Source of the DNA: Escherichia coli
Lineage (GTDB): Bacteria > Pseudomonadota > Gammaproteobacteria > Enterobacterales > Enterobacteriaceae
DNA: 64,000 nucleotides
NCBI RefSeq assembly: GCF_045037415.1
Contig: NZ_CP173438.1
Strand: one strand, 5' to 3'
Of this stretch, positions 5,319 to 21,396 are shown piece after piece; position 1 is the first letter of the stretch, and every line of letters starts with the position of its first letter. The position numbers were made by a program, and so were the translations under genes. Below the pieces are notes generated by a model. It did not search any database and was not told the DNA's origin. It saw only the letters and a list, made by a program, of their open reading frames with translations.

Positions 5319-6065
5319 ATGTTAAGTATTAAAGATTTACACGTCAGCGTGGAAGATAAAGCTATCCTGCGTGGATTAAGCCTCGATGTTCGTCCCGGCG
5401 AAGTTCACGCCATTATGGGGCCAAACGGTTCGGGCAAAAGTACCTTATCGGCAACGCTTGCCGGGCGAGAAGATTATGAAGTGACGAGCGGCACGGTTGA
5501 GTTTAAAGGCAAAGATTTGCTTGCGCTGTCGCCGGAAGATCGTGCAGGTGAAGGCATCTTTATGGCCTTCCAGTATCCGGTGGAAATTCCCGGCGTCAGT
5601 AACCAGTTTTTCCTGCAAACGGCACTTAATGCGGTGCGCAGCTATCGCGGCCAGGAAACGCTCGACCGCTTTGATTTTCAGGATTTGATGGAAGAGAAAA
5701 TCGCTCTCCTGAAGATGCCGGAAGATTTATTAACCCGTTCGGTAAACGTTGGTTTTTCCGGCGGCGAGAAAAAGCGCAACGATATTTTGCAAATGGCGGT
5801 GCTGGAACCGGAGTTATGCATTCTTGATGAGTCAGACTCCGGGCTGGATATTGACGCATTAAAAGTGGTTGCCGATGGCGTGAACTCGCTGCGTGACGGC
5901 AAGCGTTCATTCATCATTGTTACGCACTATCAACGCATTCTCGACTACATCAAGCCTGATTACGTCCATGTGCTGTATCAGGGACGAATTGTGAAATCCG
6001 GCGATTTCACGTTGGTCAAACAACTGGAGGAGCAGGGTTATGGCTGGCTTACCGAACAGCAGTAA
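5319..6065 (+). CDS. sufC: Fe-S cluster assembly ATPase SufC
   Basis: 248 aa ABC-type ATPase with Walker A GPNGSGKST. Confidence 0.96.
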   Translation: MLSIKDLHVSVEDKAILRGLSLDVRPGEVHAIMGPNGSGKSTLSATLAGREDYEVTSGTVEFKGKDLLALSPEDRAGEGIFMAFQYPVEIPGVSNQFFLQTALNAVRSYRGQETLDRFDFQDLMEEKIALLKMPEDLLTRSVNVGFSGGEKKRNDILQMAVLEPELCILDESDSGLDIDALKVVADGVNSLRDGKRSFIIVTHYQRILDYIKPDYVHVLYQGRIVKSGDFTLVKQLEEQGYGWLTEQQ

Positions 6066-7311: not shown

Positions 7312-8528
7312 CTTTTTCCGTCGACAAAGTGCGGGCCGACTTTCCGGTGCTTTCTCGTGAGGTAAACGGTTTGCCGCTGGCTTATCTCGACAGTGCCGCC
7401 AGTGCGCAGAAACCAAGCCAGGTGATTGACGCCGAGGCTGAGTTTTATCGTCACGGCTACGCGGCGGTGCATCGCGGTATTCATACCTTAAGCGCCCAGG
7501 CGACCGAGAAAATGGAGAACGTGCGCAAGCGGGCATCGCTGTTTATTAATGCCCGTTCGGCGGAAGAGCTGGTGTTCGTCCGCGGCACGACGGAAGGGAT
7601 CAATCTGGTCGCCAATAGCTGGGGCAACAGCAATGTGCGAGCGGGCGATAACATCATCATCAGTCAGATGGAGCACCACGCTAACATTGTCCCCTGGCAG
7701 ATGCTTTGCGCACGCGTTGGCGCAGAGCTGCGTGTGATCCCGCTCAACCCCGACGGTACTCTGCAACTGGAGACGCTGCCTACGCTGTTTGATGAGAAAA
7801 CTCGCCTGCTGGCAATTACTCATGTCTCCAACGTGCTTGGGACAGAAAATCCGCTGGCGGAGATGATCACACTTGCGCATCAACATGGCGCAAAAGTGCT
7901 GGTGGATGGCGCTCAGGCGGTGATGCATCATCCGGTGGATGTTCAGGCGCTGGATTGCGATTTCTACGTGTTTTCCGGGCATAAACTGTATGGTCCCACC
8001 GGCATTGGCGTGCTGTATGTCAAAGAAGCCTTGTTGCAGGAGATGCCGCCGTGGGAAGGGGGCGGTTCTATGATTGCCACCGTTAGCCTGAGTGAAGGCA
8101 CTACCTGGACCAAAGCGCCGTGGCGGTTTGAAGCCGGTACGCCCAATACCGGAGGTATTATTGGCCTTGGCGCGGCGCTGGAGTATGTTTCGGCGCTGGG
8201 GCTTAATAACATAGCCGAGTATGAACAGAATCTGATGCACTACGCGCTAGCACAGCTGGAATCTGTACCGGATCTCACTCTCTATGGCCCACAGAACAGG
8301 CTTGGCGTTATTGCTTTTAATCTCGGTAAACACCACGCCTATGATGTTGGCAGTTTTCTCGATAATTACGGCATTGCTGTGCGTACCGGACATCACTGCG
8401 CTATGCCATTAATGGCCTATTACAACGTCCCCGCGATGTGTCGGGCGTCGCTGGCAATGTACAACACCCATGAAGAAGTGGATCGTCTGGTAACTGGATT
8501 GCAACGTATTCATCGTCTACTGGGGTAA
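7308..8528 (+). CDS. sufS: cysteine desulfurase SufS (PLP-dependent)
   Basis: 406 aa class-V aminotransferase fold; 4-nt overlap with sufD. Confidence 0.96.
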
Positions 8529-8540
8529 AAGGGAGGCTCT

Positions 8541-8957
8541 ATGGCTGTATTGCCGGATAAAGAAAAATTGCTGCGTAACTTTTTACGCTGCGCCAACTGG
8601 GAAGAGAAATATCTCTACATTATTGAACTGGGACAGCGTCTGCCAGAATTACGTGACGAAGACAAAAGCCCGCAAAATAGCATCCAGGGCTGCCAGAGTC
8701 AGGTGTGGATTGTAATGCGCCAGAATGCGCAGGGAATTATTGAATTGCAGGGCGACAGCGATGCGGCCATTGTAAAAGGGCTTATTGCGGTCGTCTTTAT
8801 TCTTTACGATCAAATGACGCCGCAGGATATTGTCAATTTCGATGTGCGCCCGTGGTTTGAAAAAATGGCGCTCACCCAACATCTCACCCCATCACGCTCA
8901 CAAGGTCTGGAAGCGATGATTCGCGCAATTCGCGCCAAAGCCGCTGCACTTAGCTAA
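8541..8957 (+). CDS. sufE: sulfur acceptor SufE
   Basis: 138 aa; last gene of the suf operon. Confidence 0.95.
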
Positions 8958-18270: not shown

Positions 18271-19083
18271 ATGATCATTACACGAGCAGACCTGCGAGAA
18301 TGGCGTATCGGAGCGGTGATGTATCGCTGGTTTCTGCGCCATTTCCCACGTGGCGGTAGTTATGCCGATATTCATCATGCACTGATTGAGGAAGGATATA
18401 CGGACTGGGCGGAGAGTCTGGTTGAGTATGCGTGGAAAAAATGGCTGGCAGATGAAAACTTCGCGCATCAGGAAGTTTCCTCTATGCAAAAACTGGCCAC
18501 AGATCCCGGAGAACGACTATTTTGCAGTCAGTTTGTCCGCAGCGACGATCATGCTCGCCTCGGCTGTTGTGAGGATAACGCCAGAATCGCAACCGCTGGG
18601 TATGCCGCGCAAATTGCCAGTATGGGTTATAGCGTGCGGATTGGAAGTGTCGGCTTTAACAGTCACATTGGCAGCTCCGGTGCACGCGCACGGGTTGCTG
18701 TAACCGGTAATTCTTCGCGGATAAGCAGCGCTGGAGATAGCGGTCGGATTGCGAATACCGGAATGCGAGTACGCGTTTGTACATTGGGTGAACGGTGTCA
18801 TGTCGCCAGTAATGGTGACCTGGTGCAAATCGCCAGCTTTGGCGCAAACGCCAGAATTGCCAACAGCGGCGACAATGTACACATCATTGCCAGTGGTGAA
18901 AATTCAACGGTAGTGAGCACGGGCGTGGTCGACTCAATTATTCTCGGGCCAGGGGGATGCGCCGCACTGGCATATCATGACGGCGAAAGAGTTCGCTTCG
19001 CCGTCGCCATTGAAGGTGAAAACAATATTCGAGCCGGAGTCCGCTATCGTCTTAATGAACAACATCAGTTTGTTGAGTGCTGA
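18271..19083 (+). CDS. ydhT: protein YdhT (function unknown; internal 9-residue repeats)
   Basis: 270 aa; last gene of the ydhYVWXUT cluster. Confidence 0.88.
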   Translation: MIITRADLREWRIGAVMYRWFLRHFPRGGSYADIHHALIEEGYTDWAESLVEYAWKKWLADENFAHQEVSSMQKLATDPGERLFCSQFVRSDDHARLGCCEDNARIATAGYAAQIASMGYSVRIGSVGFNSHIGSSGARARVAVTGNSSRISSAGDSGRIANTGMRVRVCTLGERCHVASNGDLVQIASFGANARIANSGDNVHIIASGENSTVVSTGVVDSIILGPGGCAALAYHDGERVRFAVAIEGENNIRAGVRYRLNEQHQFVEC

Positions 19084-19094
19084 TAGCTTTACCT

Positions 19095-20699
19095 TTAATC
19101 AAACGAAAGACGCCGACGCGCACGGGATGCAGGTTTTACGACCGCCCGAGCCATCGCCTCTCCAATTTCTGCACATGCCGTAATTCCCTGAACGAAAGGC
19201 TGGTCGTGCATCAACCAGGGCAACGCGCCGAACGCTACGCGCCCACGAATATCTTCGGGTTGCTGTAACGTATAATCTTCGCCAACATTAGGGATTTCAT
19301 CCCCTGTTTTCTGTAATTGTTCGCGTAGTCCAGGGAAAGGAATATCTTTCACTTTAAGCGGACGCTGCCCGCGGGCATCAATAAAAACGTCAAACGAGTA
19401 GCTATTGTCTTCCGTTTTCAGGACGGTGCGCGACTCATTAATTTCCATTTCGTAGTCTTCACCGAGGGCGAGAATATGAATGATTCCCGCTTCACGTAAG
19501 GCCAGTAGTCGACGAATAGACTCTGAAGGGATTGCCGCATAATTATCGATGAAAACCCGGGCAAGGCCTTTACTGAACCGTTTATGGTCGTGTTCATTCA
19601 GATGTGGAACAATTTCCTGTACGGCTTCATGCAGGCGCAGAATGACATAACGCCAGGGAACAGTATGTTTTTCTCGTTTATTGCGTTCGACTTCCTGGAG
19701 ATTTTCTTCTGCCCAGTCAAATGGGTCGCGTTGTTTGCGCTCGGCAAACCAGGCTTGAGCAAAGGAATCGACATTCAGGCTCTCTAAGGCTATGCGTTGG
19801 CTCCAGTCTGGATCAGCAAACTTGATTTCCTCTACTATCAATCTAAATACCCGATCCAAAAGGCCCACTTCGCCTTTTTGAATCTCAGCATTTAATGCCT
19901 GATCGGTGATGATGTGTAAGGGCTCGTAGGGAATAGGGCAATAGAAATCGGCTTCGGGTAAAATACCTGTGCGCGACATTAACGTAATATTTAGCTTTTC
20001 ATTTGCGTTATCGCGGTGAAAAGTGACGTGTTGTTTATCATCTTCAATGAACGAACCATGCTGAATAGCCACTGCCATTGCCGCATCCAGTCCGCTCAAG
20101 GATGTTCCCATAATACCCACGTTACACGCATCGACCTTTGCTTCCATCAGGCCTGACCACGGGCTGGGAAAATACGTTCTGGTTGCTTCTTCTTCATCAG
20201 GCCAGACGTGCCCCGTTGCGATCACCGCTAAATCAAACGTCTCGCTGGGTAAATTCAGATTTGTAGCGAGCATGACGCCAGCATTTGTAATTTGCAGATC
20301 GGTAACCTGGCATGATTCATAAACAGCCACTGCAAATTTTTGCTGTCGTGCCTGGTCTACTAATCGTAAAAATTGATCGCGGAAATATTCGCCCAGCAGA
20401 ATTCGCGGTAAAAACTGACGATCGTGCAAGGTTTCTTTTTTAACGCCATAACGCTGGAGATGGCTGGCTTCTTGCTTTTGTAGCCATTCGAGATACGTGC
20501 AATAAATCGGCGGTATTTCAATACTGGCAATGTTTGCCAGCATCAGTTTTGAGTTTTCCTCATCACTGTATGGCATCCCGATACCGGCTTCGTCAGCCTG
20601 ATCGAAGATAGAAATAGAAAGTGGCGTTTGTTGCTGTAGAAGCGAGAATAAGGTGTAGATCCCCGTAGGCCCGGCACCCACAATAGCAATTGTTTTCAT
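19095..20699 (-). CDS. ydhS: FAD/NAD(P)-binding protein YdhS
   Basis: 534 aa; N-terminal Rossmann motif IAIVGAGPTG. Confidence 0.9.
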   Translation of the reverse strand: MKTIAIVGAGPTGIYTLFSLLQQQTPLSISIFDQADEAGIGMPYSDEENSKLMLANIASIEIPPIYCTYLEWLQKQEASHLQRYGVKKETLHDRQFLPRILLGEYFRDQFLRLVDQARQQKFAVAVYESCQVTDLQITNAGVMLATNLNLPSETFDLAVIATGHVWPDEEEATRTYFPSPWSGLMEAKVDACNVGIMGTSLSGLDAAMAVAIQHGSFIEDDKQHVTFHRDNANEKLNITLMSRTGILPEADFYCPIPYEPLHIITDQALNAEIQKGEVGLLDRVFRLIVEEIKFADPDWSQRIALESLNVDSFAQAWFAERKQRDPFDWAEENLQEVERNKREKHTVPWRYVILRLHEAVQEIVPHLNEHDHKRFSKGLARVFIDNYAAIPSESIRRLLALREAGIIHILALGEDYEMEINESRTVLKTEDNSYSFDVFIDARGQRPLKVKDIPFPGLREQLQKTGDEIPNVGEDYTLQQPEDIRGRVAFGALPWLMHDQPFVQGITACAEIGEAMARAVVKPASRARRRLSFD

Positions 20700-20824
20700 T
20701 GTTACTTACCTGTACGCATTCTTTCGAATTTAGTGTTATCAGGTAAGTTTGGTTGAGATTTTTAGAATTTGAGAAATTTCAGACAGGGATGAAAAGGGCA
20801 CTAACCGCCCTTGATTAAAATCTG

Positions 20825-21130
20825 TCAGGCAAGTTTTGCCTGATTGATTTGACTCAGTGGCACATTGACATCGAAAACTTTGGCGACAACTTCCTCAACG
20901 CCGAGATTTTTCAGTCGGGCAGTATGTTTTTCCAGATAGGCAAGGGCGCTTTTTTCATCAGTGAAAAGGTAGATCCCACCGGCTTCGTGGTTCTTTTCAC
21001 TTTCTGTCCAAACCTTCCACAGAAAACCAGGTTCCTGATTAATCGACTCAGCAAGCGGTTTAAGCTGCTCAGCCATTGTGTCGCCAAATGGGCCATTGAA
21101 AGAAAAATGAAGTTGTAACAAAGTTGCCAT
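20825..21130 (-). CDS. ydhR: putative monooxygenase YdhR (dimeric alpha/beta barrel)
   Basis: 101 aa matching recalled YdhR. Confidence 0.88.
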
Positions 21131-21238
21131 AGCGATTCTCCTTCTGATAACGCATACGAAGACAGTGTAAATCTTTTAACGTATTGGATACAGAGAAGAA
21201 ACAGAGGGAAAAAAGGAGAAGACCAGATTAAGAAAATC

Positions 21239-21315
21239 TGGTGCGTCCGAGTGGACTCGAACCACCGACCCCCACCATGTCAAGGTGGTGCTCTAACCAA
21301 CTGAGCTACGGACGC
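21239..21315 (-). tRNA. valV: tRNA-Val (anticodon GAC)
   Basis: Reverse complement reads GCGTCCGTAGCTCAGTTGGTTAGAGCACCACCTTGACATGGTGGGGGTCGGTGGTTCGAGTCCACTCGGACGCACCA; cloverleaf with encoded CCA. Confidence 0.95.
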
Positions 21316-21319
21316 AGGA

Positions 21320-21396
21320 TGGTGCGTTCAATTGGACTCGAACCAACGACCCCCACCATGTCAAGGTGGTGCTCTAACCAACTGAGCTATGAACGC
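21320..21396 (-). tRNA. valW: tRNA-Val (anticodon GAC), second copy
   Basis: Reverse complement reads GCGTTCATAGCTCAGTTGGTTAGAGCACCACCTTGACATGG...CCAATTGAACGCACCA; 4-nt spacer from the first copy. Confidence 0.95.

Follow-up and report, generated by a model that had tools for sequence, protein, structure and literature searches.

This study concerns ydhS and ydhR, two neighbouring genes of Escherichia coli carried on a 64,000-nucleotide stretch of contig NZ_CP173438.1 (hereafter the window), which we consider, with moderate confidence, to be unrelated and separately transcribed, YdhS being a class B oxygenase resembling FzmM and YdhR a barrel protein whose monooxygenase label reflects its fold only. 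The locus itself is already known and ordinary, and both genes have been annotated previously; what is added here is a distant, FzmM-like position of YdhS within class B, based on structure, and a likely lineage-specific insertion behind the ydhR/ydhS adjacency. The genes at issue are the following, in window coordinates:

19095..20699, minus strand: ydhS coding sequence (534 aa, starting MKTIAIVGAGPTG; open reading frame list), encoding a predicted three-domain FAD/NAD(P)H class B flavoprotein monooxygenase

20825..21130, minus strand: ydhR coding sequence (101 aa; open reading frame list), encoding a ferredoxin-like beta-alpha-beta protein with two chains per PDB entry

21239-21315 and 21320-21396, minus strand: valW and valV, tandem tRNA-Val(GAC) genes 4 nt apart (ARAGORN, Rfam tRNA matches)

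The minus strand carries, in succession, mdtK, (ydhQ on the opposite strand), valV-valW, 108 nt, ydhR, 125 nt and ydhS, the latter converging with ydhT, the last gene of ydhYVWXUT, with stop codons 11 bp apart. The open reading frame list agrees exactly with the identities, lengths and intactness that an earlier, sequence-only reading of this DNA had given for both genes and, together with ARAGORN, with its placement of them beside valV/valW and convergent to ydhYVWXUT. Several E. coli chromosomes, with the annotations ydhT, ydhS, ydhR and two tRNA-Val, match the segment 18900-21500 at 100% identity, and at least 80% of this segment is present in 5398 of 5426 complete E. coli genomes. Both ydhS and ydhR are real genes under purifying selection, the ratio of nonsynonymous to synonymous substitution rates (dN/dS) against a divergent Escherichia lineage (L008, the L numbers designating genome loci) being 0.082 for ydhS and 0.097 for ydhR.

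The AlphaFold2 model of YdhS (predicted local distance difference test 94.8, predicted template-modelling score 0.92) displays two beta-alpha-beta domains together with a helical region spanning residues 266-403, and its overall fold superposes on solved class B enzymes. The structure-based homology search with Foldseek that the sequence-only reading had proposed gave, for YdhS, FzmM (8CP5/8CP2) as the top match (E 6e-23, template-modelling score 0.74), followed some ten orders of magnitude behind by a group of ornithine hydroxylases, KtzI, SidA and PvdA (E 1e-13 to 1e-10). Furthermore, 476 YdhS residues are aligned to 8CP2 versus about 355 to the other N-hydroxylases, and therefore only FzmM matches through the helical domain of YdhS. 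FzmM is built of three domains, with a helical substrate domain wedged between the dinucleotide-binding domains, and follows a class B cycle (PMC10404684). From this modelling, YdhS is predicted to be a single-component class B flavoprotein monooxygenase, dependent on flavin adenine dinucleotide (FAD) and NAD(P)H, with an architecture of the FzmM type. Sequence profiles point in the same direction. Indeed, a profile built from an alignment of 85 full-length homologues, with identity down to 24%, on which all conservation values given below for YdhS are based, matches class B flavin-containing monooxygenases (FMOs) of the PDB at E values of 9e-11 to 1e-7, and matches FzmM 8CP2 (E 1.9e-7) in one stretch, residues 4-250 against 3-261, that covers both nucleotide-binding domains.

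YdhS matches NCBIfam PRK09897 over its full length with 1101.7 bits (cut-off 783) and belongs to a small family, a search of 1.84 billion proteins giving 932 representatives with E values of 0.001 or below. The earlier impression that it has no obvious second domain does not survive the finding of a second Rossmann-type motif, of a domain linker, of a helical domain and of the superposition of the whole protein on FzmM; this impression arose because Pfam shows PF13454 (NAD_binding_9) only, over residues 5-164 (106.1 bits, cut-off 21.8), and because a single-sequence search of the PDB with YdhS gives no match. The elements that can be placed along the protein are:

20661..20678, minus strand: GAGPTG, residues 8-13, FAD-binding GxGxxG motif of the first Rossmann fold, aligned to the FMO FAD motif

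20532..20534, minus strand: Asn56 codon, candidate by position only for the Asn lying over flavin C4a (Asn62 in FzmM)

20208..20219, minus strand: ATGH, residues 161-164, linker of the FAD and NADPH domains (ATGY in N-hydroxylases), covered by the FMO alignments

20091..20108, minus strand: GTSLSG, residues 198-203, second dinucleotide-binding (NAD(P)H) motif, aligned to the FMO NADPH motif

19485..19970, minus strand: helical domain, about residues 244-405, between both dinucleotide-binding domains, with DSSP helices over 266-403; presumed to bind the substrate

19365..19379, minus strand: DARGQ, residues 441-445, C-terminal, where the chain returns towards the nucleotide-binding domains

The N-terminal GxGxxG motif already recognized by the sequence-only reading is thus present, and G8 and G10 are invariant in all 85 homologues, as are N56, R99, G163, G198, L201 and G444, position 44 being aromatic in every one of them. 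Within the linker sequence FDLAVIATGHVWP, G163 is found in 100% of the homologues and H164 in 94%, with a Tyr in 5 sequences. GTSLSG is a variant of GxGxx(G/A) in which, besides the invariant G198 and L201, S200 (95%) and D205, shortly after it (98%), are well kept. At a strand end of the second domain lies TLMSR, with S242 in 95% and R243 in 67 of the 85 homologues, which we take to resemble the Ser/Arg pair for the NADPH 2'-phosphate in NADPH-dependent relatives. By analogy, the DARGQ motif (G444 100%, Q445 91%) may contribute to FAD binding. As regards the flavin site, FzmM has a Trp51 and an Asn62, the latter being the Asn over flavin C4a (PMC10404684), and the spacing of Asn56 after the aromatic residue 44 would be plausible beside this pair.

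Several observations weigh against the assignment of YdhS to class B as an FzmM-like enzyme. YdhS and FzmM share 18% identity, and no PDB entry resembles the helical domain detectably in sequence: a profile covering residues 228-525, the C-terminal half, gave no meaningful PDB match, 8CP2 included. A profile covering residues 24-120 gave no meaningful match either, and a distant family member (P0236) retrieved a thiazole synthase only. The equivalence of N56 with Asn62 is putative and drawn from position. Across the 80 genome loci described below, no operon partner is conserved in the YdhS family that would indicate a pathway. Finally, literature searches agree with the sequence-only reading that neither protein has a demonstrated function; they returned no biochemical data on YdhS or YdhR, so that FAD binding, NADPH preference and oxygen transfer are predictions, and they yielded nothing on PF13454 or COG4529.

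YdhS compares with the known groups of class B enzymes as follows. The ornithine/lysine N-hydroxylating monooxygenases (SidA, PvdA, KtzI, DesB, NbtG, IucD-type) possess a small substrate domain, align over about 330-360 residues with 11-14% identity and sit in siderophore clusters, which ydhS does not. Matches to FMOs (bacterial Tmm/FMO, yeast, plant) are partial, the helical domain has no counterpart in them, and a regular-expression search of YdhS for the FMO-identifying motif FxGxxxHxxx(Y/F) found none. On the other hand, the FzmM/CreE-type L-aspartate N-hydroxylase (nitrosuccinate synthase; 8CP2, 8CP5) shares with YdhS the large helical domain and the same three-domain build, but is an enzyme of a biosynthetic cluster while ydhS is a core-genome gene. 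HpyO urate hydroxylase was also considered as a possible member of the YdhS family and was dropped, the paper on it speaking only of "a distinct family of hydroxylases".

From the fold and motifs of YdhS we infer its chemistry, cofactor specificity and substrate class as follows. The bound FAD would be reduced by NADPH, and the reduced flavin would react with O2 to form a C4a-hydroperoxyflavin stabilized by bound NADP+; a small polar metabolite held in the helical domain would then receive one oxygen atom on a nucleophilic heteroatom, most likely an amine nitrogen and possibly sulfur.

A rather unlikely alternative is that YdhS is not an oxygenase but an NAD(P)H oxidase or dehydrogenase, passing electrons to O2 (giving H2O2), to a quinone or to another acceptor. 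The genomic context is of interest here. Among 80 genome loci encoding YdhS relatives, found with an 18-sequence alignment of closer homologues, a large-subunit (HPII-type) catalase gene immediately precedes the ydhS homologue, in the same orientation, in four loci (Brucella, Paracoccus, a metagenome-assembled genome (MAG) of Hyphomicrobiales and a gammaproteobacterial MAG), and in Sphingobium (L076) it lies about 1.3 kb upstream:

Catalase genes, locus coordinates, same strand as the ydhS homologue: L018 1068-3182; L027 36-1622; L029 3730-5862; L046 4413-5867; L076 2656-4737

The YdhS homologues of the Brucella, Hyphomicrobiales and Paracoccus catalase loci are 63-66% identical to E. coli YdhS, a level that is unusual between different classes and suggests that catalase and ydhS were transferred horizontally as a unit. 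An upstream catalase fits a source of H2O2, and the phenotype of the ydhS deletion, by which E. coli is less killed by the Agrobacterium type VI secretion system and which is complemented in trans (PMC7012810), would fit oxidative damage. However, the catalase link does not discriminate between the two possibilities because uncoupled class B enzymes also leak H2O2. Moreover, the top structural matches are, by a clear margin, true monooxygenases, only an N-hydroxylase aligns through the helical domain, and class B enzymes that hydroxylate a substrate have features such as the invariant Asn56, the ATG(H/Y) linker and the conserved, large extra domain.

A narrower version of the oxygenase proposal, which we regard as a long shot, would make YdhS a core-genome, stationary-phase N-oxygenase acting on a primary metabolite (amino acid, amine or base) to give an N-hydroxy, nitroso or nitro compound or nitrite. 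Two observations would fit it: MOSC proteins, whose relatives act as reductases of N-hydroxylated compounds, adjoin 16 Rhizobiaceae homologues, in both orientations, and a catalase stands beside those homologues that are nearest to the enterobacterial ydhS. The MOSC protein (MOSC_N + MOSC, about 240-280 aa) is the most widespread neighbour family of ydhS, with 16 of the 80 loci, the neighbours in E. coli being ydhR and ydhT. In these Rhizobiaceae loci it lies at about 7650-8600 and is either co-directional with the ydhS homologue, with a 4-nt overlap in two loci, or convergent, with a 16-nt overlap in most; a functional link is hinted at because the adjacency is kept through inversion.

MOSC-bearing loci: L060, L063-L067, L069-L072, L074, L075, L077, L078, L080, L081

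We give very little credence to the idea that YdhS reduces disulfides of low-molecular-weight thiols in the manner of YpdA or thioredoxin reductase. YpdA has a conserved cysteine within its GxGxxG motif; YdhS has Thr12 at that place, a column with T or S in 71 of the 85 homologues, and the family possesses neither a CxxC nor any conserved cysteine. In addition, matches of the YpdA or thioredoxin-reductase type extend over about 300 residues only and miss the helical domain.

Least credible of all is that YdhS is the FzmM/CreE orthologue, an L-aspartate N-hydroxylase forming nitrosuccinate and hence nitrite or 3-nitropropionate: FzmM is indeed the closest solved structure, with the same three-domain architecture, and the profile match to 8CP2 does cover both nucleotide-binding domains, but identity is 18%, the would-be substrate-binding half of YdhS shows no sequence similarity to 8CP2, and no conserved partner of the CreD/FzmL type is visible among the gene families that recur in the 80 loci (each in at most 16 of them), no domain search having been aimed at lyases. 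The ligand residues tell against it as well. FzmM binds L-aspartate through an Arg cluster (Arg13, 266, 276, 409, 412, 416 and 577) plus Asn413 (PMC10404684), and Arg13 is not conserved by position in YdhS: in the coordinates of the profile match, and assuming no early indel, it falls on Ile14, a hydrophobic column with L, I or V in 74 of the 85 homologues. The remaining residues of the cluster fall within the part of the protein that lacks sequence similarity to 8CP2. The substrate of YdhS is probably not L-aspartate.

Turning to YdhR, this protein matches PF08803 (140.9 bits) and PRK11118 (167 bits) above the curated cut-offs and is the protein of PDB entries 2ASY, 1WD6 and 2HIQ (E about 2e-62 to 5e-62). 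The ferredoxin-like alpha+beta barrel fold is present, and the dimeric alpha/beta-barrel type announced by the sequence-only reading is correct. With regard to the activity, the designation as a monooxygenase is a fold-level analogy to the ABM-type cofactor-independent oxygenases, with no recognizable cofactor site. The ABM, or dimeric alpha+beta-barrel, superfamily (ActVA-Orf6, SnoaB, YgiN, LsrG, MhuD) shows 10-17% identity to YdhR and comprises several unrelated activities. Furthermore, a Pfam search at E up to 0.1 gives PF08803 alone, with no sequence match to the ABM family, and the structural neighbours of YdhR differ in activity. Assignment to a characterized enzyme family, which the sequence-only reading had named as the outcome that would overturn its view of both proteins, was obtained for YdhS in part, at the level of superfamily and architecture, and not for YdhR.

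That YdhR could nonetheless be a genuine cofactor-independent monooxygenase like ActVA-Orf6, SnoaB and YgiN, with an aromatic or quinol substrate, is a possibility that we entertain tentatively and hold to be the less probable one. The invariant Trp38, Trp41, Tyr54, Tyr65, His69 and Arg72 could line a pocket, and YdhR accumulates about 3.4-fold under uranyl stress, alongside the quinone reductase WrbA (PMC3935937). Against this, besides the missing sequence-level match to ABM, structures that match YdhR just as well are BLUF domains of photoreceptors, a protein designed de novo, LsrG (an isomerase) and NosA, which tailors thiopeptides, no conserved neighbour gene points to a pathway in Raoultella, Neisseria or Vibrio, and a full-text literature search found no reported assay. 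The conservation of YdhR also weighs against our own account of this protein as a barrel with a fold-only label: across beta- and gammaproteobacteria, 45 of 101 columns do not vary and identity averages 77% per column, which implies a specific function that this account leaves unnamed. The ydhR mRNA is lower with plumbagin (PMC8933826). The distribution of the family reaches beyond bacteria, with a homologue of 76% identity in Naegleria gruberi (P0342) and a copy in the yeast Debaryomyces hansenii cited as an interkingdom transfer (PMC2459174).

The view of ydhS and ydhR as a pair, taken by the sequence-only reading, does not extend past one genus. In the 80 loci, ydhR is found beside ydhS in Escherichia only, a single Citrobacter MAG having ydhR 2.8 kb upstream. 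In 7 checked loci from Enterobacter, Lelliottia, Huaxiibacter, Shimwellia and Citrobacter werkmanii, the tandem tRNA-Val(GAC) genes stand directly upstream of ydhS, at 118-215 nt. In an alignment of the spacers, ydhR and its flanking sequence are seen as inserted DNA that separates the tRNA-Val genes from ydhS, and these sequence comparisons make it likely that ydhR was inserted downstream of valV/valW in the Escherichia lineage. In Raoultella, Neisseria and Vibrio, the ydhR homologues occur singly, in unrelated contexts. Two short elements of the spacer between both genes bear on their transcription:

20742-20753, minus strand: ACCAAACTTACC, 43-54 nt upstream of the ydhS ATG, motif ACCA[CA]ACTTA[TC]C (spacer alignment)

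20788..20812, minus strand: hairpin (7-bp stem, 5-nt loop) followed by UUUCAU, 13 nt past the ydhR stop codon

Every aligned genus, with or without ydhR, retains the motif ACCA[CA]ACTTA[TC]C ahead of ydhS (in L005, L009, L023, L037 and L056 it lies just upstream of position 6001). We infer from its conservation and sequence that it is a candidate part of the ydhS promoter, where it resembles a -10 element of the sigma-S type. A binding site of the RpoS holoenzyme was found by genomic systematic evolution of ligands by exponential enrichment (SELEX) within the spacer between ydhR and ydhS (PMC5493296), where the motif coincides with it, ydhR was transcribed better by the sigma-70 holoenzyme in vitro (PMC3141248), and ydhR is not co-transcribed with valVW (PMC2190699). 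The hairpin is kept in Escherichia L008 with changes of loop and stem bases, and the RNA of the ydhR-ydhS spacer folds with -28.7 kcal/mol (z = -3.44). A consensus terminator scan did not call the hairpin after ydhR, which is probably a weak intrinsic terminator for this gene.

It is in this context that a functional two-protein redox system, with for instance YdhS as flavin reductase or oxygenase and YdhR as small oxygenase or accessory subunit, has to be judged. In 5398 of 5426 E. coli genomes the two genes run in the same direction with 125 bp between them, both carry an oxidoreductase-type annotation, and the terminator after ydhR looks weak, so that some read-through is possible. Nevertheless, the adjacency is limited to Escherichia, other Enterobacteriaceae have tRNA-Val directly before ydhS and keep the upstream motif without ydhR, and the ydhR homologues of three other genera have no ydhS-like neighbour. 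Furthermore, Citrobacter amalonaticus appears to carry both genes, and in one C. amalonaticus genome no ydhR lies within 6 kb of ydhS; the reported sigma preferences of the two genes differ as well. Such a system appears to us highly improbable, and we retain that ydhS and ydhR are independent genes.

Two further observations were made around ydhR. In E. coli strain AR_0081 (NZ_CP027534.1), the match to the locus is broken in two by an IS1 in the ydhR-ydhS region and is otherwise identical. In addition, the plus strand carries at 21114-21277 a full-length Rfam match to RF02194, "HPnc0260 bacterial antisense RNA" (112 bits versus a gathering score of 59), antisense to the start codon and 5' region of ydhR as well as to valW in its 3' half. 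Its best, structured portion (model positions 117-156) is the reverse complement of the 3' half of tRNA-Val, the rest being A-rich and of low structure, and a partial match to the same model (36.6 bits) is found antisense to valV. The match is probably a by-product of an antisense tRNA inside the model, not evidence for an antisense RNA in E. coli.

On the other side of ydhS, the convergent ydhYVWXUT operon is activated by FNR (PMC3688515), and ydhS-ydhT has been listed among convergent overlapping transcripts, or excludons (PMC12288877). Over 19083-19306, the nearest terminator-like hairpin for the plus-strand operon is at 19289-19306, inside the ydhS coding sequence, with none between the ydhT and ydhS stop codons, and the 3' ends of both transcripts must overlap because of this. 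An O2-requiring YdhS facing the anaerobic ydhYVWXUT would fit mutually exclusive expression. YdhT itself (18271-19083, plus strand, 270 aa) has no Pfam match at E up to 0.001, and its C-terminal two-thirds looks internally repetitive, with recurring S/G-x-x-A-R-I/V-A-x-x-G segments. As for other neighbours of ydhS homologues, a beta-carbonic anhydrase is convergent with ydhS in Enterobacter-type loci, and a DUF1543 protein of about 170 aa is encoded downstream on the same strand in two sphingomonads (L079 7659-8171, with a 4-nt overlap, and L076 7662-8162).

Further reports on ydhS describe a two-fold upregulation in enterohaemorrhagic E. coli on meat with microbiota (PMC5543532) and, in Klebsiella, a recurrent P to Q substitution in lactic-acid-evolved lines, deletion of the gene having no effect on tolerance (PMC11205318). 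YdhS is also cut in vitro by the periplasmic protease Prc (PMC7481392); given the predicted cytoplasmic location of YdhS, this cleavage probably has no physiological role.

ydhS and ydhR are among the still uncharacterized genes of E. coli, and neither result alters the current understanding of a system. The N-oxygenase proposal, if true, would reveal a source of endogenous N-O chemistry not known in E. coli. The recognition of ydhR as a probable Escherichia-specific insertion removes a misleading guilt-by-association, and the two genes should be studied separately. YdhS moves from an "FAD/NAD(P)-binding protein" to a testable enzyme hypothesis, in which it would use NADPH, O2 and a small molecule bearing an amine or sulfur.

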